DNA from: an uncultured Chloroflexia bacterium
Lineage (GTDB): Bacteria; Chloroflexota; Limnocylindria; Limnocylindrales; CSP1-4
Length of the DNA: 64,000 nucleotides
Direction: 5' to 3'
Assembly: GCA_963826225.1 (NCBI GenBank)
Contig: CAWGWF010000001.1
Span: 2,483,023-2,547,022 of the forward strand
Shown here: positions 14,675 to 62,223 of the stretch, in pieces
Layout of the letters: every line of letters begins with the position of its first letter
Numbering within the stretch: position 1 is the first letter of the stretch
Notes under the pieces: generated by a model
The model's database searches: none
The model's input: only the letters and a program-made list of their open reading frames with translations
Told to the model about the DNA's origin: nothing
Translations under genes and position numbers: made by a program

Positions 14675-15310
14675 TCAACCGGAGCCGAGATCCCCGCGCG
14701 TGTCGATGTCGCGCAGCGTGGCGCCCATCGGGTCGAGGGCGAGCCATTCGGCGGCCGGGAGGGTCGCGGCTCCGGCAGCCTCCAGCAGCGAGCGGAGGCT
14801 CCGGCGACCGCCCGCGAGGCAGGCTTCCAGTGCGTCCGTGACGGCACCGGGCCGCAGCGCCATGGGCAGCGGTGTGGGCGGTGATGCGTCGAGGGTGATC
14901 GCGGTCAGGTCCTCGTCGGCGGTCAGGCGATCGGCAAGGAGCCGCAGCACGCCCGGCACCATGCCCGGCATGTCCCCGCCGGCGATGATCACGACGCGCG
15001 GCGGGTGATCCCGGGCGAGGACGACATCCAGCCCTGCCGCGACGCCCGCCAGCGGCCCGCCGAGCGCCTCCCGGTCACGCGTCACGGAGACGCGGTCGGC
15101 CAAAGGCGCCGGAACAGGAGGCGCGGGGGCACCGGGTGCGAGCACCAGGACGATGTCGTCCACCACCGCGGCAACCGCCCACAGCGCATGGTGGAGCACC
15201 GGGCGGCCGCCCAGGTCGGCGGCGAGCTTGTCCCCGCCGAAGCGGCTCGACTCCCCACCCGCGAGGACGATCGCCGTGATCGCCGTGCCGCTCGCGGGCT
15301 CGCTGCTCAC
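14675..15310 (-). CDS. mobA: molybdenum cofactor guanylyltransferase MobA
   Basis: 211 aa. N-terminal ITAIVLAGGESSRFGGDKL (MobA LAGGxSxRMGxDK motif). ATGA overlap with the selB stop. Confidence 0.8.
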   Translation of the reverse strand: MSSEPASGTAITAIVLAGGESSRFGGDKLAADLGGRPVLHHALWAVAAVVDDIVLVLAPGAPAPPVPAPLADRVSVTRDREALGGPLAGVAAGLDVVLARDHPPRVVIIAGGDMPGMVPGVLRLLADRLTADEDLTAITLDASPPTPLPMALRPGAVTDALEACLAGGRRSLRSLLEAAGAATLPAAEWLALDPMGATLRDIDTRGDLGSG

Positions 15311-17270
15311 GTCTCACCGTCCGCGCCGGCGGCCCGATCGCGCGCCCGCGCGATCGCCTTCGGCCCCAGGACGTGCCCCGCGTCGGTGCGGCGGAGCAGG
15401 CCACGCCGATCGAGGTCCTCCAGCACGACCACCACATAGCGGCGGCTGGTGCCGGTCGCGTCGCGGAACGCCGCCGGCGAGAGGGGCCCGGCGGCGGCCA
15501 TCGACAGGGCGCGTTTCGCCAGGTCCCGGTAGGTCGTCGCGGCCCATGCCAGGTCGTCCTCCAGGCGGACGATCCGGCCGGCCGTCACGAGGGCGCGCAC
15601 CCCTTCCGGCGGACAGCCCACGGCACGCGCCGTCTCTGCGAGCGCTGGTGGGGCGGGCACGTCCAGGGCCGCCTCGAGGCGGTCCATCGCCGCCATGGTG
15701 GCGGGCGGCAGGCCGGCGACCCGCGCGGGGTCGCGAAGCCGGTCCCCGTCGCGGGCCAGGACCCCACCGGCCACGGCTGCGTCCTCGACGTGGCGCGCGA
15801 CCTCGTCCGCCGCGGCGCGATCGAGCGTTGCCCGCCGCCGGGCGGCGAGCGCCAGGTCCCGCCGCAACGCCGGCGCGGGCAACCCGGGGGAGCCCGGCTC
15901 CGCCGCGTGGTGCGCCGCGACCAGGTCCCGCGCCGTGGCCGCCAGCGCGTCTGCGACATCCGGCGCAAGGGTCCAGCCGCCCGCGCCGCGAACGGCCCCG
16001 TGGAGGTCCAGCCGGGCGGCATCCGGGCCTGCGGCACCGGTGGCGCCGATCGAGGCGGGACCGGCGGCCGCGGCCGCGAGCGCCGCTGCGCGCGCCGGTG
16101 TCAGCCGCCGGCGCGACACCCCGCGCGGAGGGTCCGGGTCCAGGATCACGCCGCCGCCCGCGGTGGACCCGGGCGACGGGCGACGCAGCGCGAACGCGTC
16201 CCCGGCGGCGGCCGCCACCCGCGCGTCGAGCCGCAGCAGCGCCACCGAGGACCCGTCGGGCAGATCGATCGCCTCGCGCGGGCCCCGGATCACGAGCGCG
16301 GCCGCCTGCGCGGTCCCCAGGTGGAGGCGGAGCGCTCGCGGTCGGCAGGCGCGGGCACCGGGGGGCGGGCAGGATCGAGCGCGACCGTCGGGCGGACCGC
16401 GACCAGCACCCGCGACGTCGCCACGACCCCGGGGTCGCGCGTCAGGACCTGGCCCCGCCGCACGTCCGACGCCTCGACGCCGCCCAGCAGCAGCGCGGTC
16501 CGCCCGCCGGCCGCCGACTCGACGGTCGCGCCGCGGACCTGGACCTCGCGGACCCGGACGTCGATGCCCTCGGGCATGAGCCGCAGGGTCATCCCGGCCG
16601 TCACCGGCCCGCCACGCAGGCTGCCCGTCACCACCGTCCCGCGCCCCCGGACCGCGAACACCCGGTCGATCGCCAGCCGGGGTGGTCGCTCCGCCGCCGC
16701 GGTCGCCGACCCCCCCAGGCGAGCGGCGAGGCGGGCCACGATCTCAGCGACGGCCGCCCGGACGGCCTCCACGCCCTCGCCGGTGGCGGCGGACGCGACC
16801 AGCACCGGCGCCCCGGCGAGGGAGGTCCGGTCCAGCAGCGCACGCACCTCGCGGGCGACCTCCGCCGGCCGTTCGGCGTCCGCGGCCAGGTCCGCCTTGG
16901 TGACGATGCCGAGGCCGTCCCGGACCCCGAGCGCGTCCAGCAGCTCCAGGTGCTCCAACGTCTGCGCCCGCGCGCCGTCGTCCGCCGCGACGATCACCAT
17001 CGCCGCATCGATCTCGCCGGCCCCCACCAGCATGTTGCCGATCAGCCGGTCGTGGCCCGGCACGTCCACGAAGTCCGCCACGGTCCCGTCCGGCAGCGCG
17101 AGGTGCGCATACCCCACGTCGATCGTGATCCCGCGTCGCCGCTCCTCGGGCAGCCGGTCGGCGTCGATGCCGGTCAACGCGCGCAGGAGCGCGGTCTTGC
17201 CGTGGTCGATGTGGCCGGCGGTGCCGATGACCACGGCGGGGTCGGCGGCCGGGCCGGAGTTCGCGGTCAT
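15307..17270 (-). pseudogene. selB: selenocysteine-specific elongation factor SelB, interrupted by one apparent frameshift near 16340-16370 (G6 run); domains I-II in ORF 16290..17270, domain III and winged helices in ORF 15307..16293
   Basis: GTPase motifs VIGTAGHIDHGKT, DVPGH, TKADL. Domain III-end motif AFALRRPSPGSTAGGGVILDP and LHLGTAQAAALVI appear only in the alternative frame upstream of 16293. The two ORFs overlap by ATGA. Confidence 0.7.
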
Positions 17271-18649
17271 CGTCCGGGCGGCGGCAGGTCCGCGATGCGG
17301 CGCGCGATCGTGCCGTCCTCGAACGGTGGCACGGTCCGCAGGTCGAACACCAGCGCATCGTCCACGATCCGGGCCAGGATCCGGTCCGGCACGCGGCGCA
17401 GGGCCGCGGCCGCCCGCGTGGGCGACGCCGCCGGCACGGACACGCCGAAGGACGGCAGCACCTGGCCGGGCAGCGAGCCGCCCCCGACCGGCGATTCGAG
17501 CGCCACCACGGAGACGTCGCCGCGCCCGGCCCCGGCAGCCTGACCGGCGATCCACTCGGCGCGGTCCCGCAGCACCCCAGGCGCCCGGGCGATCAGCTGC
17601 CAGACGGGGATGTCGATCGCCGCCCGCCCGGCCCGGTAGATGGCGAGCGTGGCCGCCACCCCGGCCAGGATCGACTTGTCCGGGCGCATCGCCCGGGCCA
17701 GCGGGTCCCGTCGCAGCCGCGCGATCAGCTCCCGCCGCCCGACGAGCAGCCCCGCCTGCGGCCCGCCCACCAGCTTGTCGCCGCTGAACAGCACGACGTC
17801 GGCACCCGCGGCCAGGCGCTCGGCGGGGGTGGGCTCGTGGGCAAGCCCGAAGTCGGCTGTGTCAAGGAGGGCGCCCGAGCCCAGGTCGTCGAGGACGAGG
17901 GCGCCGTGCGCGTGGGCGAGCGCCGCGACCTCGGTGAGATCCGCGCTCTCCGCGAACCCGGTGACCGCGAAGTTGGACGGATGGACCCGGAGCACCGCCC
18001 GTGCCCGGCCGTCCGCCAGCGGGGCCTCGAAGTCCGCCGCCCGGGTCCGGTTCGTCGTGCCGACCTCCACCAGGCGCGCCCCCGCCCGGGCCGTGATCTC
18101 CGGGATCCGGACCCCGCCGCCGATCTCCACCAGCTCCCCGCGCGAGACCGCGATGCCGCCCCGCCGCCCGGCCAGGCCCACCGCCAGGAGCAGGGCGGCC
18201 GCGTTGTTGGTCACGACCATCGCGTCCTCGGCGCCCGTCAGCGCCACGAGATGCTCCTCCGCGGCACGGAACCGCGGCCCGCGGCGGCCCGTGCCCGGGT
18301 CCAGCTCGAGGTAGCCGTACGAGCGGGCGGCGAGCGCCGCCGCGGCGCGCGCGGCCCGCGGCCAGGGTGCCCGCCCCAGGTTCGTGTGCAGGATGACGCC
18401 CGTCGCGTTGATGACCGGCAGAGGGATCGTCGCGGCCGGATCGCCCAGCGCCGCGACCCGCGCCAGGACCGCGTCGGCCAGCTCCGCCTCCGGGGTGGGA
18501 GGGGCGCCCGAGGCCAGGCGCCGCCGCTCCTCGTCGACCACGTCGCGAGCCAGGGCCGTCAGCGCCGCGGGCTCGGACACCTCGACCTCGTCGCGGACGA
18601 GGACGAGGAGGCGCTCGATGCTCGGGGGCCGGGCCCGGGCCGTCGTCAT
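17267..18649 (-). CDS. selA: L-seryl-tRNA(Sec) selenium transferase SelA
   Basis: 460 aa intact. PLP-lysine region VLFSGDKLVGGPQAG, INATGVILHTNLGRAP. Stop overlaps the selB start. The ORF-track extension to 20794 was rejected. Confidence 0.9.
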   Translation of the reverse strand: MTTARARPPSIERLLVLVRDEVEVSEPAALTALARDVVDEERRRLASGAPPTPEAELADAVLARVAALGDPAATIPLPVINATGVILHTNLGRAPWPRAARAAAALAARSYGYLELDPGTGRRGPRFRAAEEHLVALTGAEDAMVVTNNAAALLLAVGLAGRRGGIAVSRGELVEIGGGVRIPEITARAGARLVEVGTTNRTRAADFEAPLADGRARAVLRVHPSNFAVTGFAESADLTEVAALAHAHGALVLDDLGSGALLDTADFGLAHEPTPAERLAAGADVVLFSGDKLVGGPQAGLLVGRRELIARLRRDPLARAMRPDKSILAGVAATLAIYRAGRAAIDIPVWQLIARAPGVLRDRAEWIAGQAAGAGRGDVSVVALESPVGGGSLPGQVLPSFGVSVPAASPTRAAAALRRVPDRILARIVDDALVFDLRTVPPFEDGTIARRIADLPPPGR

Positions 18650-20593: not shown

Positions 20594-20690
20594 TGGCGGG
20601 AGCGCATGGGAGTCGAACCCACCGCGCGACGCCGGGCGCCGCGCCACCGGTTTTGAAGACCGGGGAGCCCACCGGGACCCCTCCGCTCCC
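20594..20690 (-). tRNA. selC: tRNA-Sec (selC), anticodon UCA, long variable arm, 97 nt including CCA
   Basis: Minus-strand read GGGAGCGG-AG-GGGUCC-CGGU-GGGCUC-CC-CCGGU-CUUCAAA-ACCGG-[24-nt extra arm GGCGCGGCG...GUCGCGC]-GUGGG-UUCGACU-CCCAU-GCGCUCCC-G-CCA. This gives a 6-bp D-stem with 4-nt D-loop, a UCA anticodon in a CUUCAAA loop, a 5-bp T-stem and a 7/8-bp acceptor stem. Confidence 0.8.
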
Positions 20691-20759
20691 AGCGCCGATG
20701 GTAGCGCCGCCGCCCGCCTCGGGACCGGGCTGCGCGTCCGGCGTCGTATCCTCCCGCGC

Positions 20760-21821
20760 ATGACCGAGCCGGCCCTCCCCGCGATCCGCCTCACCGACTA
20801 CACCGAGTGCGGCGGCTGCGCCGCGAAGCTCGGCGCGGACCTGCTGGCCGAGGCGCTGGCAGGACTCGGCGCGGGGGACGCGGCTGGGGCGGCGGACCCG
20901 GCCCTGATCGCCGGCCTGGCACCGCCCGACGATGCTGCGGCGTGGCGCGTCTCGGACGACCTGGCGATCCTGGGCACGCTCGACTTCTTCCCGCCGCTCG
21001 TGGACGACCCGGCGGAGTACGGCGAGATCGCGGCGGCCAACGCGCTCTCGGACGTGTTCGCGATGGGCGGTCGGGTGCTGTTCGCGCTGTCGATCGCGGC
21101 CTTCCCGGAGGGCTTCCCGCGCGGGAGCGCTGGCGACGATCCTCGAGGCGGCGGCGGCGAAGGTGCGCGAGGCGGGCGGCCTGCTGGCGGGCGGGCACAC
21201 GATCCGGGACCCCGAGCCGAAGTTCGGGCTGGCCGTGATCGGCGCCGCGCACCCGGACCGGCTGCTGCGAAAGGGCGGCGCGACGCCCGGCGACGTGCTC
21301 GCTGCTCACGAAACGCCTGGGGACCGGGCTGCTGGTGAGCGGTCGGCGCCAGGGTCGCGTCGGGGACGCGGACCTGCGCGCCGCCATTCGACCAGATGCG
21401 AAGCCTCAATCGGGCCGCGTCCGAGGCCCTCGTCCGTCACGGGATCCGCGGCGCCACGGACGTGACGGGGTTCGGGCTCCTGGGTCACGCCCTGGAGATG
21501 GCCCGAGCCTCGGGAGCCCGGCTGGCCTTCGAGGCCGCCGCCCTGCCGGCCCTCGACGGCGCCCTGGATCTGGCACGCGGTGGCGTCGAGACCGATGGCG
21601 CCGGTCACAACCGGCGGTACACGGCCCCGGCGCTGGCGATCGCCGACGCCGTGCCGGAGGCGGCGGCCGCGCTCGCCCACGATCCGCAGACGTCCGGGGG
21701 CCTGCTGGCGGCGGTGCCCCGGGCGGTCCTCGCAGCGGTGGAGGCGGATCTCGCCGCGGCCGGTGTCGCGGCATGGCGGGTCGGATCGGTGGAGCTCGGC
21801 GAGGGCGTCGCCCTGCGCTGA
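20760..21821 (+). pseudogene. selD: selenide, water dikinase SelD, reading frame broken by three apparent +1 frameshifts (about 21126, 21300, 21390); frames 0 to 1 to 2 to 0
   Basis: Segments in successive frames align end-to-end with E. coli SelD: TDYTECGGCAAK...AAFPEGFPRG | ALATILEAAAAKVREAGGLLAGGHTIRDPEPKFGLAV...GDVL | LTKRLGTGLLVSGRRQGRVGDADLRAAI | DQMRSLN...TDVTGFGLLGHALEM...DPQTSGGLL. Divergent from tRNA-Sec, 70 bp away. Confidence 0.7.
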
Positions 21822-32320: not shown

Positions 32321-32325
32321 CCCGG

Positions 32326-34010: not shown

Positions 34011-34055
34011 GACGTTGCGATCGGCGGTGAGGTGGCTGCTCGTCGATGCCCGGGG

Positions 34056-36439: not shown

Positions 36440-36799
36440 ACGCCTCCCGTGCGTCTTCGACCGGCGCGCGACAACGAAGCGACGGTCGATGACCCATCCG
36501 CTCCGTCGAGTCTCCCGTGGCCGTCAAGCGGCAAACAAGGGCCGTTCGGTCCCCCACCTGAGCCGCCTCGGCCCGGGCGACCGGAGCGGCGCTGCGGCAG
36601 CCACGGCGCCCCGGACGAGGGCATCGCGTGGCCGCGACGGCGTGGCCGGCGGGCGTCGCCCCGACCGCGACCGCGTCGCCGGACGAGGGCCTCGCGTCGC
36701 GGTGATGCCGCAGCCGGCGTGGCGTCGCCCCGGCCTCCCGGGCGGTTGCACGGACCCGTACACTCTCACGATCGGACCCTCCGCACGGCGAGGTAGCAC

Positions 36800-38722
36800 A
36801 TGCCGAAGGAGTACGTCCGCCTGACCACGCCGCTCGTGCGCGACGGCGACCGCCGCTCCGGGGCGCCTCTCCGCCCAGCCAGCTGGGACGAGGCGCTGCA
36901 GAGGACGGTCGACGGGCTCCGGGCGGCAGGCGAGGCGCACGGCTCCCGGACGTACGGGATCTTCAGCTGCAGCCGCTCCACCAACGAGGTGAACTTCGCG
37001 GCCGGCAAGTTCTCCCGGGTCGTCCTGGGCAGCAACAACATCGACAGCTGCAACCGCACCTGACACGCCCCCTCTGTCGCCGGTCTGGCGACCGTGTTCG
37101 GCGCTGGCGGGTGCACCAGCTCATACCGTGAGATCGAGGAGACGGACGTCATCCTCCTGTGGGGCAGCAACGCCCGGGAGACGCATCCGATCTTCTTCCA
37201 CCACCTCCTGAAGGGGGTCCGCAACGGTGCCCGGCTGTACGCCGTGGACCCGCGGCGCACCTCGTCCGCGGAGTGGGCCGACCTGTGGCTGGGCCTGGAC
37301 GTCGGGACGGACATCGTGATGGCCAACGCGATGGGCCGCGAGATCATCGCCGCCGGGCTGGCCGACGAGGAGTTCATTCACCGGGCCACGACCGGCTTCG
37401 AGGCCTACAAGGCGACGGTGGAGCCCTACACGCTGGAGCGCGCGCAGCGCGAGACCGGCGTCCCGGCCGATGCGATCCGCGAGGCGGCGCACGCGTACGC
37501 CACCGCCAACCGGGCCATGATCTGCTGGACGCTGGGCATCACGGAGCACCACAACGCGGTGGACAACGTGCTGGCGCTCATCAACCTGTCGCTGCTGACG
37601 GGGCACGTGGGCAAATGGGGCAGCGGCCTCAACCCGCTCCGGGGCCAGAACAACGTCCAGGGTGGCGGCGACAGCGGCGCGCTGCCGGACCGGCTGCCGG
37701 GCTTCCAGCACGTGGAGAACGACGAGATCCGCGCCCGCTTCGACAAGGCGTGGGGCGTCACGGTCCCGCCCCGCCGCGGATGGAACCTCACGGCGATGTA
37801 CGACGCGATGGAGCGCGGGGACCTCACGGCCCTCTACTGCATCGGCGAGAACCCGGTCCAGTCCGAGGCGGACGGGCATCGCGTGCGGCGTCTGCTCGAG
37901 GGACTCGAGTTCATGGCCGTCCAGGACATCTTCCTGACCGCCACCGCCGAGCTGGCGGACGTGGTCCTCCCGGCCGCGGCCGCTTGGGCCGAGACCGACG
38001 GCACGGTCACCAACTCCGAGCGGCGCGTTCAGCGCGTGCGCAAGGCGCTGGATCCGCCGGGCGATGCCCGCGACGACCTGTGGATCATCTTCGAGCTGGC
38101 GCGCCGGATGGGCCACGACTGGGGCGAGGCCTCCGCCGAGGCCGCCTGGAACGAGTTCCGGACGCTCTCGCCCGCGCACACCGGGATGAGCTACGCGCGG
38201 CTCGAGGCCGAGGACGGGCTCCAGTGGCCGTGCTACGACGAGACCCACCCCGGCGAGCCGTTCCTCCACTCGCGGCTGTGGGCGAACCCCGTGCCCGGCA
38301 ACCGGGCGCCGTTCGTGCCCGTTGAGCACGACCCGCCGGTGGAGGCGCTGGACGACGAGTTCCCGATGCGTCTCACCACGGGCCGCCACCTGGACTCGTA
38401 CAACACGGGCGTCCAGTCCGGTCCGCTGCGATACCCGAAGCGTCGCCGCGAGGCGATCGACCTGTGCCCGGAGGATCTGCTCCGGATGGGCCTGGCCGAG
38501 GGTGACATGGTGCGGATCGTGTCCCGCCGCGGTGCCGTCGAGGCACCCGTGCGGGTGGATCGCTCGCTGCGTCCCGGCCTCGCGTTCATGACCCTGCACA
38601 GCCCGGACGAGGTGGACGTCAACGTCCTGACGATCGACGCCACGGACTGGAAGTCCGGCACGGCCGAGTTCAAGGCCGCAGCGGTCCGCATCGAGAAGCT
38701 CGGCGCGCCGGTCGCGGGGTAG
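36800..38722 (+). CDS. formate-dehydrogenase-like molybdopterin (bis-MGD) oxidoreductase catalytic subunit, selenoprotein (TGA 37061..37063 read as Sec), lacking the N-terminal Fe-S domain
   Basis: ORFs 36800..37063 and 37094..38722 are in one frame across a single TGA. The context SNNIDSCNRT-U-HAPSVAGL matches the E. coli FdhF Sec140 context SNNVDCCARV-U-HGPSVAGL. Full FdhF-like MopB and C-terminal MGD domains follow. The protein starts at the position equivalent to FdhF residue ~60 (no CxxCxxC cluster). Confidence 0.8.
37064..37096 (+). other. SECIS-like mRNA hairpin immediately 3' of the Sec UGA
   Basis: CACGCCCCCUCU-GUCGCC-GGUCU-GGCGAC: 6-bp stem with GGUCU apical loop starting 13 nt after UGA. 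Resembles the E. coli fdhF SECIS (GCA-GGUCU-GCA apex). Confidence 0.55.
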
Positions 38723-38854: not shown

Positions 38855-39008
38855 ACGGACGGTTCACGCCATGTCCGTGGCTCCCGGCGAGCCCAAGCAC
38901 CCGTAGACGCCCCGAACCAGTCGGGATCGCATCTCCGGTGGGCCGAGACCGGGGTTCCGCAAGGCACGCGAGCCGCGCAAGCCCCGGGTGAGCCCCCCGG
39001 TGTTCACT

Positions 39009-39030
39009 GTGAGTGAAATGTCGCCGGTTC
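39009..39030. promoter_or_regulatory. palindromic operator-like box 2: GTG-TTCACT-gtg-AGTGAA-ATG (ends in the start codon of the XRE gene)
   Basis: Same TTCACT-N3-AGTGAA core as box 1, 178 bp downstream. Confidence 0.4.
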
Positions 39031-39869
39031 GACGCGCCGCCGTGTTGCCGACTCCTGCTCGGTCTGCCTTGGTGCGCATGGCCGTCGAGGTCGGGCAGCA
39101 GCTCCGCGAGGAGCGCATCCGGCGCCGCTGGACGCTCCGGCAGGTGGCGGACCGGGCGGGCGTCGCACTCGGCGTCGTGCACGACGCGGAGTCGGGGAGC
39201 GTCCTCACGCTTGAGTCGTACGCCAGACTGGCCGTCGCGCTCGGGCTGCGGCCCTCGCTCCTCGCGACCCGTCCGGACGCACGCGCCGCCCGGTCCGCCG
39301 GCGGCGAGGACATCGTCCACGCAGCGATGGGCGAGCTCGAGGCACGCGTCCTGGAACGACCCAGCCGCACCATCGCCATCGACGAGCCGTACCAGCACTA
39401 CCAGTTCGCGGGTCGGGCGGACGTGCTGGCATGGGACCGGGAGAACCTGCTCCACATCGAGAACCGGACCCGGTTCCCGAACCTCCAGCAGGCCGCCGGC
39501 GCGTACAACGCCAAGCGCCAGTACCTGGCCCGAAGCATGGCAGAGCGGCTGGATCTCGGGCCGCACGGCTGGCGGAGCGTGACCCACGTGATGGCCTGCG
39601 CCTGGTCCGCTGAGGTCCTGCACGTGCTGCGCCTGCGACGCGCCACGTTCAACGCGCTGTGCCCGGACCCTCCGGACGCGCTCGAGGCGTGGCTCCGCGG
39701 CGAGGCACCGGCCGCGGCTGCCGTCACCAGCACGCTCGTCCTGCTGGACCCGCTGGTGCCGTTCGGATCCCGCCGGCGGACGATCGTGCCGATGATCGAA
39801 CCGCCGCTGGTCCGTCCCCGCCATCGGGGCTACGCCGAGATCGCCGATGCGCTCCAACGGGTCGCATGA
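39028..39869 (+). CDS. XRE-family helix-turn-helix transcriptional regulator with uncharacterised C-terminal domain
   Basis: HTH region QQLREERIRRRWTLRQVADRAGVALGVVHDAESG. ~280 aa. Start ambiguous (GTG 38988, ATG 39028 or ATG 39088). Confidence 0.6.
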
Positions 39870-40489: not shown

Positions 40490-42478
40490 ATGGACCCCTG
40501 CGCGGCCGCTACACTGCCGGGCATGGACCTGCACATCGCCGACATCGCGCCGACGCCGGCCGAGCGGGCCGCGATCGACGCGATCCTGGACCCGGAGATC
40601 GGACCCGTCCGCGGCGGCTGGGACGGTGGCGAGCGTGATGTCGATCGGGACGGCCGCATCGCGCGGGGCGGGCACGAGGCGCGGTCCCGTCGGGACCTGC
40701 TGCTCCCCGCCCTCCACGCAGCCCAGGACCGCGTGGGCTGGATCAGCCCGGGTGCCCTTGCCCACATCTGCCGCCGCCTGACGGTGCCCCCGGCCGAGGC
40801 GTACGGCGTGGCCTCGTTCTACGCGCTCCTGTCCACCGAGCCCCGGCCGCCCGCCGCGGTCCACGTGTGCGACGACATGGCCTGCCGCCTGGCGGGCGCG
40901 GAGCGGGTCTGCGAGGAGCTGGAGCAGGCGCTGGGACCCGCGGGCCATCCCCGGGACGGGTCGCAGATGACCTGGATGCGCAGCCCCTGCATCGGCCAGT
41001 GCGAGCGCGCCCCGGCCGCGATGTACACCATCGCCGGCGACCCGCCGATCCGCGACGCGACCGGCCCGGTTGACGCGAAAGGGATCATCGCCACCCTCGG
41101 CGAGGGCCTCGTGGAGCAGGGCCATCCGCACCCCGGCCACGACGCGGCGCATGCCCTCGCCGGGACGCTGGACACGAAGCCGACGCCGGAGCGCCTGGAG
41201 GGGATCCGCCGGTTCATCCCCCAGGCGGGGGAGCGCGGCCTGCGCCTGCTCGCGCGCGTCGGCCGGATCGACCCCACCAGCCTCACCGACTACCTGGCCA
41301 ACGACGGGTACCGCGCCCTCAAGGAGGCCACGCTCCTGGGCCCGGACCGGGTCATCCAGGAGATGATCACGGCGGAGGTCCTGGGGCGCGGCGGGGCCGC
41401 CTTCCCGGCGGGCCAGAAGTGGGCCGCGGCTCGGGCGTCCACCGGGCGCCCCAAGAGCATCGTGTGCAACGCGGACGAGGCGGAGCCCGGCACGTTCAAG
41501 GACCGGGCGATCCTGGAGGAGGACCCGTTCGCCCTGGTCGAGGCGATGACGATCGCGTCCTTCGCCGTCGGCGCGGAGCTGGGGTTCATGTACCTGCGCG
41601 GCGAGTATCCGCTGGCCGAGGCGCGGATGCAGAACGCGATCGACCGGGCGCGGGAGCACGGCCTGCTGGGCGACAACATCATGGACGCGGGCTTCTCGTT
41701 CGACATCGAGATCCGGCGCGGCGGCGGCGCCTACGTGTGCGGCGAGGGCACCGCGATCTACGAGTCCATCGAGGGCAAGCGCGGGGAGCCGCGCAACAAG
41801 GCCGCCCGGTCCACCACCGCCGGCCTGTTCCAGAAGCCCACGGTCCTCAACAACGTCGAGACCCTCGCCAACGTCCCCGACATCGTCCTCGAAGGTGGCG
41901 AGATCTACGCGGCCCTCGGCACGGACCGGTCCAAGGGCCACAAGCTGTTCAGCGTCTCGGGGCACGTCGTCCGGCCGGGCGTGTACGAGTCGGAGTTCGG
42001 GATCACGCTGCGCGACCTGATCGAGCTCGCCGGCGGCGTCCCCGGCGGCCGGGCCGTCAAGGCGGTCAACGTGGGCGGCGCTGCGGGCTCCTTCGTGGGG
42101 CCGGACCAGATCCACATGCCGCTCACGTTCGAGCACGCCAAGGAGATCGGCGCGTCGCTGGGGGCCGGCGCGATCCTCGTGTTCGACGAGACGACCGACA
42201 TGGTGGACATCCTGCGGCGCATCGCCGAGTTCTTCCGCGACGAGTCCTGCGGGCAGTGCGTCCCCTGCCGGGTGGGAACCGTGCGCCAGGAGGAGCTGCT
42301 GGCGCGCCTGGCCGCCGGCCGGCCACTGGGCACCATCGACGACGAGCTCGCCCTGCTCCGCGACCTCGGCCAGGTCATGCGCGACGCCTCGATCTGCGGC
42401 CTCGGCCAGACCGCCAACGACGCCGTCCGGACGGGCCTGCGGTTCACCGGCCTGGAGCCCGTCGGGGCCGGCCGATGA
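40490..42478 (+). CDS. fused NuoE-like (2Fe-2S thioredoxin-like) and NuoF-like (FMN, NAD(H), 4Fe-4S) flavoprotein; FdsG-FdsB-type NAD-linked formate dehydrogenase diaphorase module
   Basis: 662 aa intact. N-terminal part [10 protein letters not shown]...[14 protein letters not shown]...[11 protein letters not shown] (NuoE Cys ligands). C-terminal part [46 protein letters not shown] (NuoF). Likely start at ATG 40523. Confidence 0.85.
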
Positions 42479-42642
42479 GCGAGACGCCGCGCACCATGGG
42501 CGAGTCCCACGAGGCACCGGACGGGACGCAGCGGGCGCTGTACACCGGCGTGGACCCGGCCATCTTCACCTCGCCGCCGGCGCGATCGCCCGGTCGTCCC
42601 GGGCCGCGCCGCCGGACCGCGATCGAGCCCCCGTCGAGATGA
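42475..42642 (+). CDS. hypothetical 55-aa protein, translationally coupled on both sides (ATGA overlaps); possible small FDH subunit (FdsD-like)
   Basis: [55 protein letters not shown]. Position between the nuoEF-like and fdhA-N genes. No recognisable motif. Confidence 0.3.
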
Positions 42643-43578
42643 CCATCGACGGTCACCCGGTCACCGTGCCCGCCGGCTCGACCATCCTCGAGGCCTGCCG
42701 CGCGCAGGGCATCGACATCCCAACCCTGTGCTACGGCGAAACGCTCACAGCCCGAGGGCGTCTGCCGGCTGTGCGTGGTGGACACGGGCGGTCGCGCGCT
42801 GACGCCGTCCTGCTCGGCCAAGGTCTCGCAGGGCATGGACGTCCACACGGACAGCGAGAAGGTCCGCCTGTCGCGCAAGCTCGTGCTGGAGCTGCTGGGC
42901 TCGTCGGTGGACGTGGACCTGGCCGGGCCCGAGCTGCCGGACGGGTCCATCGCCGGCTACATGGCGCGCTACGGGGCGGATCCCGGCCGCTTCGGGCCGC
43001 CCTCGCCGCCGGCGCCGGCCGGGGACCGCGACGCGCGCCTGTCCGGCCACCACCACGCGCCGGACCCCGCGGTCGCCGAGACGGTCGCGCAGCCGGTCAA
43101 GGTGGACAACGACCTCTACGTCCGCGACTACGCGAAATGCATCCTCTGCTACAAGTGCGTCGAGGCGTGCGGCGTGGACGCCCAGAACACGTTCGCGATC
43201 TCGGTGGCCGGTCGCGGCTTCGACGCCCGCGTGTCCACCGAGTACGACGTGGGCCTCAACGACTCCGCCTGCGTGTACTGCGGCAACTGCATCAACGTGT
43301 GCCCGACCGGCGCGCTGATGTTCCGCTCCGAGTACGAGATGCGGCAGGCGGGCACCTGGGACGAGTCCCGCCAGACCGTGACCGACACGATCTGCCCGTA
43401 CTGCGGCGTGGGCTGCACGCTCTCGCTGCACGTGCAGGACAACCGGATCGTGAAGGTGCTCTCGCCCGCGGACTCCGAGGTCACGGAGGGCAACCTGTGC
43501 GTGAAGGGCCGCTTCGGGTTCGACTTCGTGCAGCTGCTGCCCAAGGGATCGCCCCGGGAGGACGCGCCGGCGGGCTGA
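42639..43578 (+). pseudogene. stand-alone FdhA/NuoG N-terminal Fe-S domain protein (2Fe-2S plus 4Fe-4S clusters), with one apparent +1 frameshift near 42750
   Basis: [37 protein letters not shown] | [14 protein letters not shown]...[14 protein letters not shown]...[16 protein letters not shown]...[10 protein letters not shown]...[11 protein letters not shown]. It ends exactly where the 36800 FDH-like protein begins by homology. Confidence 0.7.
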
Positions 43579-43602
43579 TCGGCAGGTCGCCGGGCGGGCC
43601 GG

Positions 43603-46600
43603 TTACACGCCCACGTCGCGCAGGTCGCAGCGCAGACAGCGGCTCGCCTCCTCGATCGTTCCTCCCGCGAATAGCCGGCGTCGTCCTGGGCGCCGGTGTC
43701 GTCCCGAGCGCCGCCGCCGCCCCGGGCGCCGCCGCGCCGCTCGGGACGGAAGCGAGGGCCGGTCTCCACCCGCAGCGGGGCGAGCTCGCTCAGGTTCTCG
43801 GCCGGGGCAAGATGCTCCTCGATGTCGCCGCTGCCGCCCAGGTACCGGTCGATGGCCTGGGCCGCGGCGCGGCCGCGAGCGATCGCCTCCACCGACGAGG
43901 CGGGACCGATCCTCGGGCCGACGACGACGAACACGCCGTCGGCCGGTGTCGGCAGGCCGTCCGGGCTCCCGTTGGGACCATCCGGGATGTCGTCCGGGTA
44001 GCCCGCGCGGGCGTCCGCCGAGATGAGGATCGCGTCGTGACCCTGCTCCCGGAGCGCCTCGATGGGGAAGCTCGGCGAGTCGGTCCGGATCGTGACCCCG
44101 GCCGCCTCGATGATCGCGAGGTCGCGCTGCAGGGCACGGACGATCGGGCTCGTCTTGCGCAGCTGCGGCTCCCCGGACCCGCCCGCGGGCATCGCGTAGC
44201 GGAGCATGCCCCCGGGCTCGGACAGCGTCTCCAGCACCGTGACGTCGTGGCGACCACGCCTGGCCAGGTAGTAGGCGGCAGTCAGGCCGTCGGGGCCCGA
44301 GCCGATCACCGCGACGGACCTGCCCGACCGCGGACCCCCGGCCGCCGGCACGCGGGCCTCGGCCCGGCCGCCGTACCGGATGGCGGCGTCCTTGAGCGCC
44401 CGGACGGCGACATTCTCGTCGAGATCCCCGCGCCGGCATGACTTCTCGCAGGGGTGGAAGCAGGCAACGCCGCAAACCGACGGCAGCGGCAGCTTCTCGC
44501 GCACGACGAGGTATGCGGCCTCGAAGTCGCCCTGGCCCACGAGCCGGATGTACCGATGGGCCTCCACCCCGGCGGGGCACAGGTGCGCGCACGGAGCGAC
44601 GACGAGCCCCGGGCACATGCCGGCCCGACAGTGCCCGCGCTCGATGTGCTCGACGTACTCGTCGCGGAAGTAGCGGAGCGTGGTGATCACCGGGTTGGGC
44701 GCCGTCTGACCCAGACCGCACAGCGACGTCGAGCCGACCGTCCGGGCCAGCTGCTCGAGGACCGGCAGGTCCTCCAGCCTGCCATCGCCCGCACAGATCC
44801 GCTCCAGGATCTCGAGCATCCGGCCGGTCCCCTCCCGGCAGGGGGTGCACTGGCCACACGACTCGTCCCGCGTGAAGGCCAGGAAGTAGCGGGCGATGTC
44901 CACCATGCAGGTGCTCTCGTCCATGATCACGAGGCCGCCCGAGCCCATGATCGATCCGGCCTCGCGCAGGCTCTCGTAGTCGATCGGGAGGTCGGCGAGG
45001 CTGGCTGGCAGGCACCCGCCGGACGGACCGCCGGTCTGGGCCGCCTTGAACCTGCCGCCCCCGGGGATGCCGCCGCCGACGTCGCGGACGACCTCGCCCA
45101 GCGTGATCCCCATCGGGACCTCGATGAGCCCGGGCCGGTTGACCTTGCCCGTGAGCGCGAACGTCTTGGTGCCCTTGCTGGTGGCCGTGCCGAACCTCGC
45201 GTACCACGCGGCGCCCTGGCGGAGGATGCTGGCGACGTTGGCCAGCGTCTCCACGTTGTTGATGTTCGACGGCCGGCCGAACAGCCCCCGGACGGCCGGG
45301 TACGGGGGCCGGGGCCGGGGCTGCCCACGACGCCCCTCGAGGCTGGCGATGAGCGCCGTCTCCTCGCCGCACACGAAGGCGCCGGCTCCCTGCCGGATGT
45401 CGATGTCGAAGGCGAAGCCGCTGCCAAGGATGTCGGGGCCCAGCAGGCCGAGCTCGCGAGCCTGGCCGATGGCGGTCTCGAGCCGGGCGATGGCGAGCGG
45501 GTACTCGGCGCGAACGTAGACGTAGCCCCGCTCCGCGCCGATCGCGAAGCCGGCGATCGTCATGCCCTCGAGGACCGCGTGCGGGTCACCCTCCAGCACG
45601 GAGCGGTCCATGAACGCGCCCGGGTCACCCTCGTCGGCATTGCAGATGAGGGACTTGGGCGATCCGGGCGCCGCGCGGCACAGCTCCCACTTGGCGCCGG
45701 TGGGGAAGCCACCGCCGCCGCGACCTCGGAGGCCGGACGCCTTGACCTCCTCGACCACGTCTGCGGGGTGCATCGCGAGGGCGCGCCGGAGGCCCGCGTA
45801 GCCATCTCGGGCCAGGTAGTGGTCGAGGCTCGTCGGGTCGATCAGGCCGCAGTTGCGGAGCGCGATCCGGACCTGGCCGCGCATCACCGGGAGGTCCTCG
45901 AGGCGCGGGATGCCCGCGATGGTGCCGTCGCCGGCGGTGCCCAGCGCGCGGTCGGCCGGTGGCTCGCCGCGGACCACGTGGGCGGCCAGGATCCCGGCCA
46001 CGTGGTCCGGCGCGACCGGGCCGTAGACGACCCGGGGCAGGCCCGGCACCTCCACGTCCAGCAGCGGCTCCGCGTAGCACAGCCCGAAGCAGCCGACGGG
46101 CACGATGGCGGCGTCCACGCCCAACCGGGCCAGCTCCGTCCGGACCGTCGGGACCAGGTCACCGGCGCCGGCGGCCAGGCCGCAGGTGGCCGTGCCGATC
46201 GAGATGACCGGTCGCTCGCCGCCGTGGAGGCGGTGCCAGCCCTCCCGCGCCTGCGCGGTTCGCCGGACCAGGTCGTGGAGGCCCGCGGCGCGGGGCGCGG
46301 CGCCGGCCAGATCCGGGACGGCAGCCGCCGCGACGTCCTGCGTCGCCAGCCCGAGGCCGCCGGCGATCCCGGATGCGTCCAGGCCGTCCACCAGGGCTCG
46401 CGCGGAGGCCGGCGTCTGGCGCCCCCGGGCGCGCCCGTTCGCGACGATCACCGGCGCCAGGGCGCAGGAGCCGAAGCAGGCCGCCGTCTCCAGCGTGCAC
46501 CCGCGGTCCGGCGTCGTTCCCCCGGCGGTCACCCCGAGATGCGTCTCGAGCGCCCGGAGCAGCCCCGCGCTGCCGCGCACGTGGCAGGCGGTCCCGCGGC

Positions 46601-46922
46601 AGACGGTGACGGTGTTGGCACCCCGCGGCTCCAGGTGGAACCCGGCGTAGAAGCTGGCCACCCCGAACACCCGGGCGGGCGACACTCGCAGGTGCGCCGC
46701 TGCGGCCTCGATCGCCGGCGCCGGCAGGTAGCCGGCCGTGCCCTGGATGAACTGGAGCACGGGGATCACGAAGCCCGGTTCGGCGGGGAAGCGCCGCGCG
46801 AGCTCAGCCGGCCAGTCGATCGCTGGCGCGCCGGCGCCCGGTGCGGACGCATCCACCCCGGGCGCGGACGCATCGACCACCGGCGCCCGTCCTTCGACCA
46901 CCGGCGGCGGATCCGCGATCAC
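43603..46922 (-). pseudogene. giant fusion flavoprotein: NuoE-like, thioredoxin-like [2Fe-2S], NuoF-like, 2x[4Fe-4S] ferredoxin, GltD-like NAD(P)H/FAD oxidoreductase; apparent frameshift about 25 codons before the stop (~43668-43685)
   Basis: ~1106 codons from GTG 46922 (GTGA overlap with the fdhA stop). NuoE block VASFYAGFHL...CRGTAC. NuoF blocks SLICNADEGDPGAFMDR, GAGAFVCGEETA, ESCGQCTPCREGT. GltD-like blocks [32 protein letters not shown]. Canonical GltD C-terminus [17 protein letters not shown] is in a different frame ending at TAA 43603. Confidence 0.7.
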
Positions 46923-49684
46923 GGCGCCACCTTCTCCACCCGGATCGCGCAGTGCTTGAGCTCCGCGGTCTGCGTGACCGGGTCCCCCGCCTCGATCGTG
47001 AGCACGTTCGCGTTCGCCTCCGCGAAGTGGAACGCCATCCAGCACACTCCGGGCGGCGACCGGTGGGTGACCCACGCCCGGACGTCCACCGAGCCGCGCC
47101 GGGACGTCACCCGCACCACCTCGCCGTCCGAGATCCCCAGCCGGGCCGCGTCGTCCGGGCTGAGCTCGATCAGCTCCTCCCCGCACACGGCCTCGAACCC
47201 CCCGGACCGCCGGGTCTGGGTGGCCGTCTGGTAGTGCCAAAGCCGCCGTCCCGTGCTGAGCACCAGCGGATAGTCGGCGTCCGGCGGCTCGGCCGGGGGA
47301 ACCCACTCGGCGGGAACGAACCGCCCCCTGCCGCGGGTGAACGCCCCGCCGGCGTGGAGGTACGGTGTGCCCGGGTGGTCCAGGGTGGGCGCCGGCCACT
47401 GGATGCCGACCTGCTCGCACCGCTCCCAGGTGATGCCGCCGTAGATCGGGCTGAGCGAGCGCAGCTCCTCCCAGATGTCCGCGGGCCCGGTGAACCCCAT
47501 CTCGTACCCCAGCCGCCGGGCCAGCTCCGCGAATATCCACCAGTCGGGGCGAGCATCTTCCGGCGGCTCCACGGCGCGACGGACCCGCTGAACCCGGCGC
47601 TCGGTGTTCGTGAAGGTCCCGTCCACCTCCGGCCAGGACGCCGCCGGGAACACGATGTCGGCAAGGGCGGTCGTCTCGGTCGGGAAGCAGTCATTGACGA
47701 TGACGAGCTCGGCCGCCCGGAGACAGGCGGCGACGTGCGCCGTGTTGGGCTCGCTCATCGCGATGTTCTCGCCGAACACGTACAGCGCCCGCAGGCTTCC
47801 GTCCTCCAGCCCCTCGAGCATGGACGGGATCGTGCGGCCGGGCCGGGTCGGCAGGCCGGGGCGGCCCCACGCCTGCTCGAACCGGGCCGCGACCATCGGG
47901 TCGTCCACCCGCTGGTAGCCGGGGTAGACGGCGGGCAGCGCACCCATGTCGCAGGCGCCCTGGACGTTGTTCTGGCCGCGCAGCGGGTTGAGCCCGGCCG
48001 ACGGCTTGCCGATGTTTCCCAGCAGCAGCTGGAGATTCGCGAGGGCCGTGACGTTGGCCGTGCCGGAGATGTGCTCGGTGATGCCCAAGGTGTAGTAGAC
48101 GCCGGCGGATTCGGCCTCGCCCAGCACCCGGGCGACGCGCCGGATGGTCTCCGCGTCCACGCCCGTGACCGCCGCCGCCCGCTCCACGGGCCAGTCGTCG
48201 ATCGTCGGCCGGAAGGCCTCGAAGCCCTCCGTGTGCTGCTCGACGAACGCCCGGTCCTCCCAGCCGCGATCCAGAATCTCATGCATCAGCCCGTTGAGGA
48301 GCGCGATGTCCGTCCCCACCCGGTGCTGGACGTGGATGTCCGCCCAGCGACACAGGTCGATCGTCCGGGGGTCGCACACGATGAGCGTCGCGCCCCGCTT
48401 GCGGGCCCGCTTCATGTACGACGCGATGACCGGGTGGGCCTCGGTCGTGTTGGAGCCGATGACCAGCAGCACGCGCGCCTGCTCGATCTCCCCGATCGAG
48501 TTCGTCATGGCCCCGGATCCGAAGCTGGTCGCCAGACCGGCGACAGTCGGAGCGTGTCACGTTCTCGCGCAGTGATCGAGGTTGTTGGTCCCGATCACCG
48601 CGCGTGCGAACTTCATCGCCGCGTAGTTGTGCTCGTTGGTGGACCGCGCACAGGCGATCAGCCCGATGGCGTCCGCGCCGTGCCTGTCCCGGATCCCGCG
48701 CAGGCGGTCCGCGGCCGTGTCCAGGGCCTCGTTCCAGGTCACGGGCTCCAGTGGCGCCTCCTTCGTCCGCCGCAGGAGTGGCGTGGTCAAGCGGTCGGCG
48801 CTGGACGTGAAGTCGTACGCGAAGCGGCCCTTGACGCACAGCATCCCGTCGTTGGGCGGCACGCCCTCCACGCCCGTGACCCGGACGACGCGGTTCGCGG
48901 CCCGGTCCACGTGGAGCTCCACCTGGCAGCCGGTGCCGCAGTAGGGGCAGGTTGTGCGCACCTTCTCGAGGGTCCACGCGCGGCCCTTGCCGATCGACTT
49001 CTTCTCGACCAGGGCCCCCGTCGGGCACAGCTGGACGCACTCCCCGCAGGACAGGCAGGAGGACGCGCCCATCGGCAGGTCCGCGTCGCAGATGACCCGT
49101 GTCTCGCCGCCGCGGTAGCCCATGTCAAGGACCTCGTTCACCACGAGGTCGTTGCACCCGCGGATGCATCGGAAGCAGCGGATGCATGCATCCGGGTCCC
49201 GGACGATGAACTGGCTGGACCGGTCAACCGGGTGGCGGCGGGCCGGCGGCGCGAACGAGGGGCGGCGGACGCCCAGGCGATAGGCGGCCTCGGCCAGCTC
49301 GCACCGGCCGGCGGCCTCGCAGGACAGGCAATCGTGGGTGCCGGCGGCGAGGAGCAGCTCCACATTGGTCCGGCGCGCCTCCAGGACCCGCTCCGAGGCG
49401 CCGGTCACGACCATGCCGTCGCGCGCCAGGAGCGTACAGGCCGTCTGCAGCGTGCCGCTCCCCTCGACCTGCACCACGCACGTCCGGCACAGCCCCGCCT
49501 GCCCCACCCGCGGGTGGTGGCACAGGCTGGGGACGTAGATGCCGTTCGCCTTCGCGGCCTCGAGGACCGTCTGCCCGGAGCGGGCCGACACCGGACGCCC
49601 GTCGATGACGAGACGCAGAGCCCCGGCGTCGCGGCCATCCCCGGGCCGGGCGGCGGGCCGTTGGGGCGCGGTTGCGACGTTCAT
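46919..49684 (-). CDS. fdhA: formate dehydrogenase alpha subunit, full length (2Fe-2S, 4Fe-4S domains plus molybdopterin domain), selenoprotein with TGA at 48557..48559 read as Sec
   Basis: ORFs 48557..49684 and 46919..48508 are contiguous in frame across one TGA. Context [35 protein letters not shown]. N-terminal CxxCxxC clusters (CHHPRVGQAGLCRTC, CLSCEAAGRCE, CIRCFRCIRGC, CLSCGECVQLCPTGAL, CPYCGTGCQ). Start ATG 49684 (MNVATAP...). Confidence 0.85.
48524..48556 (-). other. SECIS-like hairpin 3' of the Sec UGA of fdhA
   Basis: Minus-strand read UGA-CACGCUCCGACU-GUCGCC-GGUCU-GGCGAC. Identical stem-loop to the one at 37076..37092. Confidence 0.55.
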
Positions 49685-56652: not shown

Positions 56653-56967
56653 ATGAGCAACCGGTCCATCCCCACCTACCCTCGATACGTCCGTCTTGCG
56701 GGCGACCTGGGTGAGCGGCTGCGGGCGGCGCGGCTGCGCCGACGCCTCTCCGTCGCGGAGATGGCGGAGCGCATGGACGTGTCCCGACCAACGCTCTACC
56801 GCCTCGAGCACGGGGACCTGTCGGTCAGCATGAGCGTCCTGGTCCGCGCCCTTGGGGTGCTGGGCCTGGAAGGCGATCTTTCGGCGCTGGCCGCCAACGA
56901 TGAGCTCGGGCGGAAGATCGCCGATGCCACCAGCACCGCACGGCGCCGTCGGACGCCGGCCCCATGA
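56653..56967 (+). CDS. hipB: HipB-like XRE-family HTH antitoxin
   Basis: 104 aa. LRAARLRRRLSVAEMAERMDVSRPTLYRLEHGDLSVSMSVLVRALGVLG. 4-bp overlap with hipA. Confidence 0.75.
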   Translation: MSNRSIPTYPRYVRLAGDLGERLRAARLRRRLSVAEMAERMDVSRPTLYRLEHGDLSVSMSVLVRALGVLGLEGDLSALAANDELGRKIADATSTARRRRTPAP

Positions 56968-60564: not shown

Positions 60565-60668
60565 GCCCATGAGCAGCAGCAAGGGAGGTGAGCCGGAGGA
60601 GTGCATCGCCGCCGAACGGGCGGCCCACGTCCAATTCCCACAGTGAGAGAGAAAGGAGGTGAGGACAG

Positions 60669-62213: not shown

Positions 62214-62223
62214 TCCTCAACTC

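Follow-up and report, generated by a model that had tools for sequence, protein, structure and literature searches.

The stretch of DNA analyzed here, hereafter the window, comprises 64,000 nucleotides of contig CAWGWF010000001.1 (assembly GCA_963826225.1) from an uncultured Chloroflexia bacterium of the Limnocylindrales. It encodes two selenocysteine (Sec) formate dehydrogenases (FDHs) in convergent gene clusters. The subject of this text is the second of these, cluster 2, in which a full-length catalytic gene, fdhA2, is followed by a single long gene that joins NuoE-like, NuoF-like and GltD-like modules (table 1). The stop codon of fdhA2 (TGA, 46919-21) overlaps the GTG start of the fusion gene at 46922 as GTGA, the arrangement from which a first-pass annotation of this DNA had proposed that the two genes are translationally coupled. 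Judging from its profile matches and gene order, cluster 2 is a selenocysteine formate dehydrogenase operon with one long fused electron-transfer partner.

Catalytic subunit and fused partner

When its sole in-frame TGA is read as selenocysteine, fdhA2 forms one uninterrupted frame, as had been proposed. With this residue read as cysteine, the protein scores 799 bits against the Fdh-alpha model TIGR01591 (cutoff 666), spans profile positions 1-672 of 672, and carries the Pfam domains Fer2_4, NADH-G_4Fe-4S_3, Fer4, Molybdop_Fe4S4, Molybdopterin, and Molydop_binding. It is collinear with its orthologue at a second locus, L001 (76% identity, 1 gap), where a TGA is found at the matching position. 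On the 3' side of the UGA lies a hairpin that resembles a selenocysteine insertion sequence (SECIS), with a spacing and a GGUCU loop that we take to be those of the Escherichia coli fdhF SECIS. The minimum-energy fold computed with ViennaRNA for the 63-nt stretch favors another pairing (z = -0.9 relative to shuffles), and since this folding energy is not significant, it is the motif and the spacing, not the energy, that support the hairpin. A search of Rfam at the gathering threshold returned tRNA-Sec alone and no match to a bacterial SECIS family. The 17-mer that forms the hairpin, GUCGCCGGUCUGGCGAC, is identical in both fdhA paralogues of the window and begins in each case 12 nt past the UGA (48528-48544, minus strand; 37076-37092, plus strand). 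This identity holds although the proteins encoded by fdhA1 and fdhA2 are different paralogues.

The fusion protein had been described as a succession of NuoE, a thioredoxin (Trx)-like domain, NuoF, two [4Fe-4S] sites and GltD, and the Pfam domain search and the alignments to chains of known structure agree on this order. The protein is the product of one gene and not of several with masked stops, since its homologues are single chains; at least 15 database clusters contain a single-chain protein of the same kind, with identities of 67-76%. The NuoE domain carries the Cx4C...Cx3C cysteines. Residues 238-360 align with the N-terminal Trx-like domain of HydB, StnB and NfnB, the phmmer alignments of this region starting at chain residues 3-15 of 9bov_B, 8oh5_B, and 7q4v_B, and in a 15-sequence alignment just three of its cysteines (C247, C278, and C282) are invariant as candidate ligands of the [2Fe-2S] cluster (B5) that this domain carries in the Bfu enzymes. 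The Pfam domains Complex1_51K, SLBB, and NADH_4Fe-4S (including PF01512 and PF10589) follow at residues 393-759.

Residues 238-775 find their best PDB matches in NiFe-HydB (7t2r_B), NfnB (9bov_B and 9n5u_B), HydB (7q4v_B), and StnB (8oh5_B), with E values of 1e-194 to 1e-205, whereas the match of the fusion NuoF to FdsB of non-bifurcating FDHs is weaker (E = 1e-139 to 1e-117; 6vw7_B, 1e-139). In the alignment to 7t2r_B, residues C672, C710, H759, C765, and C770 correspond to C438, C476, H525, C531, and C536, and all five are invariant or nearly so among the homologues. These are the ligands of the B2 site, which consists of four Cys (or a Thr) and a His; nearly every BfuB sequence is reported to have this His, whereas non-bifurcating homologues lack it (Schut et al. 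2022, PMC9304861). By its best matches the NuoF part is thus of the Bfu (HydB/StnB) type, and the GltD part is, on the same grounds, of the Stn/NfnABC type.

The GltD-like module and its distribution

Beyond approximately residue 775 the chain continues as a PF14691 (Fer4_20) domain of the GltD/DPD type and not as a ferredoxin with two CxxCxxCxxxCP motifs. Eight cysteines of this Fe-S domain (C765-C829) are invariant, and so within the family is K844, which aligns with StnC K170. The latter residue is a ligand of the cluster proximal to the flavin adenine dinucleotide (FAD) (PMC10482914). The best sequence matches of the whole module are the GltD-like domains of NfnA (9bov_A and 9n5u_A) and StnC (8oh5_C). 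An AlphaFold model of residues 760-1088 has a mean predicted local distance difference test score (pLDDT) of 73.6, with values >90 over most of the core, and presents a confident FAD-type Rossmann fold, for which Foldseek gives the GltD-like domains of 9bov_A, 9n5v_A, and 8oh5_C as best matches. Within this fold GSGPDG, E898, and GGMLRY are kept.

The first-pass annotation had assigned to this portion an FAD/NADPH function, and in that respect it must be corrected, since the NAD(P)H-binding Rossmann subdomain is absent. The Pfam match (Pyr_redox_2/NAD_binding_8) covers residues 869-967, the first third of the fold alone, and the GltD-family NCBIfam models likewise match with their first halves alone and far under their cutoffs (TIGR01316 at positions 34-228 of 449, 90 bits vs 472). 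In the alignment to 9bov_A the query moves from 220 to 230 while the chain jumps from 302 to 462, such that chain residues ~303-461 are without counterpart; at this junction the AlphaFold model has a disordered loop. Approximately 190 columns of the 15-sequence alignment, in which the second Rossmann fold (VAVVGGGN.A.DAAR) lies, are missing from the window protein and from the homologues P0002-P0008. The segment is present in P0009-P0016 (1218-1252 aa), in P0020, P0032, and P0087, and in NuoF-GltD proteins of ~1025 aa. In a neighbor-joining tree the short forms, that is, the window protein and seven other clusters, make up one clade, with the long NuoE-fused forms as its sister group. Among the short forms, mean identity is 0.91 in the Fe-S domain, 0.80 in the FAD-N part, 0.71 in the FAD-C part, and 0.89 in the C-terminal CxxC segment, for comparison with 0.84 in the NuoF core; in the linker at the deletion it is 0.25. 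The existence of a single short clade with a well-conserved remnant suggests that the NAD(P)H subdomain was lost in one old, selected event, and that its absence does not reflect damage to this genome.

At E <= 1e-20 the search for homologues yielded 7998 proteins, and most of the best 120 of these 7998 are NuoF-GltD fusions of ~1025 aa that are annotated as NuoF. The single chain that includes NuoE is confined, among the matches listed, to the clade P0001-P0016 (at least 67% identity). At the 18 loci inspected from other phyla, nuoE as a rule stands on its own, directly upstream of the gene for the NuoF-GltD fusion. Among those loci for which the downstream genes were checked, the fusion is followed by full-length FdhA in L002, L004, and L010 and by the [FeFe]-hydrogenase HydA in L005 and L013 (Firmicutes metagenome-assembled genomes, MAGs). 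Since the catalytic subunit beside the pair of NuoE and NuoF-GltD is HydA in some phyla and FdhA in others, the B-GltD subunit seems to be exchangeable between different catalytic subunits. The earlier description of the fused partner as unusual was therefore overstated: there are thousands of NuoF-GltD fusions, the tail-to-tail layout of two FDHs recurs (in L001, L083, and L084, and rearranged in L082), and the triple fusion alone is restricted to a clade. As far as these matches and loci indicate, the set of modules is common, and it is the triple fusion and the short GltD that are particular to clades. Full-text literature searches found no description or biochemistry of a NuoF-GltD fusion as an FDH partner.

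GltD-like modules without the NADPH subdomain are also found elsewhere, namely in the NuoF-fused P0129 (46% identity), in the stand-alone proteins P0169 and P0174, and at the N-terminus of the curated family NF045663, and would thus seem to be an unstudied kind of module that recurs. The stand-alone proteins of this kind are ~370-415 aa long, and one of them carries DUF7508.

Table 1. Positions of the genes, domains, and sites discussed in the text (window coordinates; aa, residues of the fusion protein)
Feature	Position	Strand	Description or evidence
fdhA2	49684..46919	minus	921 codons; full-length Sec alpha subunit with NuoG-like Fe-S N-terminus and molybdenum/tungsten bis-pyranopterin guanine dinucleotide (Mo/W-bisPGD) domain
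Selenocysteine codon of fdhA2	48557-48559	minus	sole in-frame TGA; C-A-R-x-(U/C)-H motif context
SECIS-like hairpin	48544-48528	minus	GUCGCC-GGUCU-GGCGAC; 12 nt 3' of the fdhA2 UGA
Fused diaphorase gene, NuoE/Trx-like/NuoF/2x[4Fe-4S]/short GltD-like	46922..43603	minus	1106 aa after restoring one base; GTG start
NuoE/BfuC-like [2Fe-2S] domain, aa 41-181	46802..46380	minus	PF01257 (2Fe-2S_thioredx), E = 1e-40
HydB/StnB-type N-terminal Trx-like domain, aa 238-345	46211..45888	minus	phmmer vs 9bov_B, 8oh5_B, 7q4v_B
NuoF/BfuB core, aa 362-760: flavin mononucleotide (FMN) site, NADH site, B1 [4Fe-4S]	45839..44643	minus	TIGR01959, 493 bits
Bfu-type B2-site ligands C672, C710, H759, C765, C770	44909..44613	minus	gap-free alignment to 7t2r_B
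GltD/DPD-type Fe-S domain, two [4Fe-4S] sites, aa 770-846	44615..44385	minus	PF14691, E = 9e-16; alignment to 8oh5_C and 9bov_A
FAD-type Rossmann domain remnant, aa 865-1030 (GSGPDG...E...GGMLRY)	44330..43833	minus	alignment, AlphaFold2 model, Foldseek
Junction without NAD(P)H subdomain, aa 968-996	44021..43935	minus	variable linker, pLDDT <50
Frameshift site in fusion gene	43658..43659	minus	one base missing after GAG GA(A); 1-nt gap in DNA alignment with L001
Displaced C-terminal segment with conserved CxxC	43657..43603	minus	last 18 codons; matches homologue tails; aligns to EAIAEASRCLECGC of NfnA/StnC
Spurious read-through tail	43602..43149	minus	last 169 residues of the uncorrected reading frame; antisense to hoxU-like gene
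fdhA1, Mo-domain-only Sec FDH	36800..38722	plus	TGA at 37061-37063; TIGR01591 positions 53-672; orthologue in L001
NuoE-NuoF fusion of FDH-1, non-Bfu type	40490..42478	plus	stops just past NuoF [4Fe-4S]
hoxU-like Fe-S subunit of FDH-1	42639..43578	plus	Fer2_4, 4Fe-4S, Molybdop_Fe4S4; full-length family member; convergent to fusion gene
Frameshift in hoxU-like gene	near 42750	plus	1-nt insertion, extra A in CTCACAGCC; cuts [2Fe-2S] N-terminus off the rest
selD	20760..21821	plus	three 1-nt insertions, at 21120-23, 21301, and 21389
tRNA-Sec	20692..20594	minus	ARAGORN; Rfam RF01852, 70 bits
selA, intact	18649..17267	minus	TIGR00474, 415 bits, positions 5-452 of 455
selB	17270..15307	minus	frameshift near 16340 gives two reading frames

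Relation to known systems and proposed electron flow

Cluster 2 combines features that are otherwise found in separate systems. With the Bfu FDHs (Gottschalkia acidurici HylCBA-FdhF2) and the BfuBC core of HydABC and NiFe-HydABCSL (7t2r and 7q4v) it shares a NuoE-like C module and a B module with the Trx-like N-domain, the FMN/NADH site, B1, and all five B2 ligands including the diagnostic His, and with Fdh-Bfu it shares a Sec-FdhA that has a NuoG-like Fe-S domain. It differs in that the C and B modules are joined in one chain, in that a GltD-type di-cluster and flavin domain takes the place of the C-terminal ferredoxin-like B3/B4 domain, and in that there is no separate HylA. The best sequence and fold matches are to StnABC and NfnABC (Nfn-Bfu; 8oh5, 9bov, and 9n5u), where StnB/NfnB correspond to residues 238-775 and the GltD-like domain of StnC/NfnA to residues 775-1100; the EA.RCL.C motif and the Lys that ligates the FAD-proximal cluster are among the matching residues. 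In the Stn and Nfn enzymes, however, the GltD domain binds NADPH, their third substrate, and is inserted in the NuoG-like A subunit before a catalytically dead FDH-like domain, whereas in cluster 2 the GltD-like module lies at the C-terminus of a B-type subunit, is without the NADPH subdomain, and is accompanied by an A-type subunit that is a genuine Sec FdhA.

Other FDHs and GltD-like proteins are similar in part. FdsABG of Rhodobacter capsulatus and Cupriavidus necator (6tg9 and 6vw7) and FoDH1 of Methylobacterium extorquens (7e5z) are likewise soluble metal-dependent FDHs with a NuoE/NuoF diaphorase, and the beta subunit of FoDH1 is a NuoE-NuoF fusion; the cluster-1 enzyme of the window is of this kind. 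Unlike the cluster-2 fusion, FdsB and FoDH1-beta end past the NuoF [4Fe-4S], without the B2 His/Cys site and without a GltD module, and their match to the fusion protein is weaker (E 1e-139 to 1e-96). The NADP-dependent FdhAB of Moorella thermoacetica (Moth_2312-2314) has a beta subunit with 4Fe-4S, ferredoxin-like, and NADP-binding domains (PMC5736913). As in cluster 2, its catalytic subunit is a Sec-FdhA, but, set against cluster 2 by description only, it is without NuoE/NuoF and has an NADP site. The nucleotide module of its beta subunit is presumably GltD-like, in which case it would be a precedent for such a module on an FDH. Finally, ~300 N-terminal positions of the family NF045663 (diclust_near_Sec, pyridine nucleotide-disulfide oxidoreductase/dicluster-binding protein) and of P0169 and P0174 align unbroken with fusion residues 775-1100. 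These proteins share the Fe-S and FAD module without the NAD(P)H subdomain, but they have other C-terminal domains and no NuoE/NuoF, and the fusion protein scores 127 bits against NF045663 (cutoff 530; profile positions 17-310 of 759).

On balance we favor, with modest confidence, the hypothesis that cluster 2 encodes a conserved Sec-FDH with a fused Bfu/Stn-type partner in a short form that is uncoupled from NADP(H), and that this particular copy is probably inactive. In such an enzyme formate would be oxidized at the Sec-Mo/W pterin center, and the clusters of FdhA would pass electrons to B1 and FMN, where NAD+ would be reduced. A second branch would lead from the B2 site to the two GltD-type [4Fe-4S] clusters, with an FAD/NADP(H) site as its terminus in the long sister proteins. 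A single deletion presumably removed the NAD(P)H subdomain in the short clade, by which coupling to NADP(H) would have been lost, and the remnant has presumably been kept under purifying selection. The short-form branch would then most likely serve as a ferredoxin-type, low-potential point of entry or exit, like B3/B4 in the Bfu enzymes and the NfnB clusters in NfnAB; alternatively, it may be purely structural and stabilize the complex.

Several observations weigh against this hypothesis, some of which concern the module and others, taken up in the next section, the state of the copy. Bifurcation, the nucleotide used, and FAD binding by the remnant are each predicted from homology. The C-terminal GD motif of the FAD fold is degenerate in the window protein (VVGPRIGPA, no Asp) and is lost also in P0002 and P0007, which makes flavin binding uncertain. 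The C-terminal ferredoxin-like B3/B4 domain of the Bfu enzymes is absent from the fusion protein, and the alignments to HydB, NfnB, and StnB stop at approximately residue 775. Furthermore, cryo-electron microscopy of Csac NfnB found Zn at sites formerly assigned as clusters (PMC11829005); the B2 site may be structural, and the conservation of its ligands thus shows kinship with bifurcating B subunits and not bifurcation. The degenerate GD motif and the missing B3/B4 domain, together with the loss of the NADPH subdomain, would be compatible with a plain non-bifurcating NAD+-dependent FDH of the FdsABG or M. extorquens FoDH1 kind, in which the GltD remnant would be vestigial and have a structural role only, and the multiheme cytochromes of this genome are a weak hint at a lifestyle that is not strictly fermentative. 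We nevertheless consider such an enzyme, the main rival as to mechanism, less likely, given that the NuoF part resembles bifurcating B subunits far more than it does FdsB (E ~1e-205 vs 1e-139), that it keeps the His reported to be missing from non-bifurcating homologues (Schut et al., PMC9304861), and that the genome already has a non-Bfu NuoEF for FDH-1. In addition, few parts of the protein are as well conserved as the Fe-S domain and the CxxC tail of the remnant, which is unexpected for a vestige.

A more far-reaching hypothesis, which we regard as speculative and rather improbable, is that the NuoF-GltD B subunits represent an unrecognized Bfu-like branch whose B2 arm is wired into a GltD-type di-cluster and flavin module. 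The long form would then link formate or H2 with NAD(H) as well as NADP(H), the exposed flavin/cluster end of the short form would give ferredoxin or some other one-electron partner a new place to dock, and the family would be a living relative of an FDH complex ancestral to Stn/NfnABC. If the short GltD is functional, an FDH with a bifurcation-type core would end in a flavin/Fe-S module with no pyridine-nucleotide site, which lies outside the current Bfu, Stn, and Fds schemes, and the long-form sisters would tie formate to two nucleotide pools. Either arrangement would extend the known range of modular redox wiring and would point to an origin for Stn/NfnABC.

Frameshifts and the state of this copy

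The C-terminus of the GltD portion had been noted to be out of frame, and the present analysis traces this to a 1-nt deletion at 43658/9, beyond which the tail, as far as its end at 43603, lies in a different frame. The CxxC tail is in frame in each of the 14 aligned homologues, and restoring one base at 43658/9 restores the protein alignment and gives 1106 aa. Without this correction the open reading frame (ORF) runs to 1257 aa and ends at 43149, which is the public gene call P0001; the C-terminus of this call is incorrect whether the deletion is a mutation or a consensus error. Frame breaks are also found in the hoxU-like gene of FDH-1, in selD, and in selB. The selD product is of the Cys type (GGCAAK), and the stitched protein covers positions 1-308 of 311 of TIGR00476 (330 bits); its orthologue at L083 is intact. 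In the window gene ~90 middle codons are out of frame, and since the three insertions total +3, both ends share one frame. The first ORF of selB covers just positions 1-281 of 581 of TIGR00475. The selA gene lies directly upstream, and its stop overlaps the selB start.

Frame breaks were sought by codon-usage Viterbi segmentation of the whole window, and no comparable break was found among ~45 other genes (~45 kb coding); ten unrelated genes of the window have end-to-end Pfam coverage. All six of the indels fall within the 26% of coding sequence that serves Sec, FDH, and molybdenum cofactor (Moco) functions (p ~3e-4 if the events are independent), and four of the nine genes of this class are frameshifted vs none of the 46 others (p ~4e-4). 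The loss of the CxxC segment, together with the frameshifts in selD, selB, and the hoxU-like gene, suggests that the system in this genome is probably inactive, and we lean toward the view that the selenium/FDH trait has been really, and recently, inactivated here. The first-pass annotation had itself named two ways in which its account of the fusion could fail, namely that the region is two or three genes or that the GltD portion is non-functional. The single-chain homologues speak against the former, and the latter has gained substance for this copy through the deletion that removes the CxxC and through the frameshifts in selD, selB, and the hoxU-like gene.

The indels were read from the assembled sequence alone, in which a real mutation and a consensus error are indistinguishable. 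Exact-pattern scans of metagenome contigs with the sequence surrounding the frameshift of the fusion gene gave no match. They are spatially clustered (16.3-21.4 kb and 42.7-43.7 kb), which lowers the effective number of events (p ~0.02 when they are counted as three clusters), and local assembly trouble would give the same pattern. Moreover, fdhA2, fdhA1, nuoEF, selA, tRNA-Sec, the two SECIS hairpins, and 1088 of the 1106 codons of the fusion gene remain intact, and any decay would need to be very recent. These points give considerable weight, short of our preference, to the alternative that neither the operon nor the Sec machinery is impaired, that the true protein has 1106 aa, and that all six frameshifts arose as consensus errors in a long-read or metagenome assembly. 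At every break, correcting a single-base indel gives a full-length, well-conserved protein; the insertions in selD sum to +3 and leave its ends in one frame; and selB and selD lie within the stretch of highest G+C in the window (77-78%). However, the ~45 other genes are free of frame breaks, the confinement of the indels to functionally linked genes is unlikely by chance, and most of the indel sites are not homopolymer runs. Two further explanations for the end of the fusion gene were rejected. Although re-reading one base at GAG GAA/ACG would yield the CxxC tail, a programmed -1 ribosomal frameshift that makes this tail in a fraction of chains is very improbable, as the site has no slippery heptamer of the form X XXY YYZ, the tail is in frame in 14 of 14 aligned homologues including the closest (76% identity), and unrelated indels occur in other nearby genes (four by our count). 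It is equally hard to credit that the tail-to-tail junction at 43578/43603 is an assembly chimera of unrelated loci that truncates the gene on each side, as might be imagined from the two stop codons just 24 nt apart and from the resemblance of the plus-strand gene to the N-terminal third of FdhA. The same convergent pair is present in L001, L083, and L084, with gaps or overlaps from a few bases to ~50 nt, and the hoxU-like protein is a full-length family member; the conserved synteny thus rules out a chimera.

If the inactivation that we favor is real, the locus may catch the loss of selenocysteine use under way, with selD and selB broken and tRNA-Sec, selA, the SECIS, and the two UGA-containing fdhA genes intact. 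The locus is of some value for work on the loss of selenocysteine use as well as on electron bifurcation.

Neighboring cluster 1 and other features of the window

Cluster 1 consists in the window of fdhA1, a GYD-domain gene, the NuoE-NuoF fusion, and the hoxU-like gene. The earlier claim that the organism encodes two soluble, convergent, and differently wired FDHs is supported by the cluster-1 NuoEF, which is without the Bfu-type His/Cys site. This protein ends after the NuoF cluster and is therefore of the FdsB/FoDH1-beta kind. FDH-1 is a split enzyme, in that its NuoG-like Fe-S part, including Molybdop_Fe4S4, is encoded by a gene of its own 4 kb downstream of fdhA1, and this split is common to L001, L083, and L084. 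Intact hoxU-like orthologues of 330-380 aa are found in L001, L082, L083, and L084. In L001, which is a Candidatus Limnocylindrales MAG with 73% G+C, the gene order is fdhD, Sec-fdhA, and the fusion gene, which converge on a 335-aa hoxU-like gene. The latter is followed by a NuoE-NuoF fusion and, at a greater distance, by a gene for a Sec-FdhA of 644 aa that comprises the Mo domain only. The tail-to-tail layout of L001 is repeated in the long-form loci L083 and L084, and the short-form locus L082 contains these genes in rearranged order. Between fdhA1 and the GYD gene lies an ORF at 38907-39869 (plus strand; ~265-320 aa) that has no NCBIfam match and whose N-terminus is, by eye, perhaps helix-turn-helix-like. 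It is missing at the matching position of L084 and may be an insertion into the conserved cluster.

Near the Sec genes, a gene for a MobA-like molybdenum cofactor guanylyltransferase (14675-15310, minus strand) lies just downstream of selB and fits the Moco/Sec/FDH theme. An ARAGORN prediction of a tRNA with a two-base anticodon ('tRNA-???') inside selA (18092-18181, minus strand) has no Rfam support and is probably a false positive.

Elsewhere in the window, four tandem paralogues of the MttB family (trimethylamine methyltransferase-like) stand beside ABC-transporter genes at 26430-32368 and 32326-36523 (minus strand). They have full-length Pfam coverage, no in-frame stop was seen in them, and they look like non-pyrrolysine types. 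Two tandem multiheme cytochrome paralogues at 60663-63680 (plus strand) share one frame with a single TGA between them at 62211; their first ~80 residues past the signal peptide are nearly identical, and they carry Paired_CXXCH and MtrC-like motifs. A gene for a HipA-like kinase (56904-58205, plus strand) lies in a stretch of lower G+C (54-60 kb) with many short ORFs.

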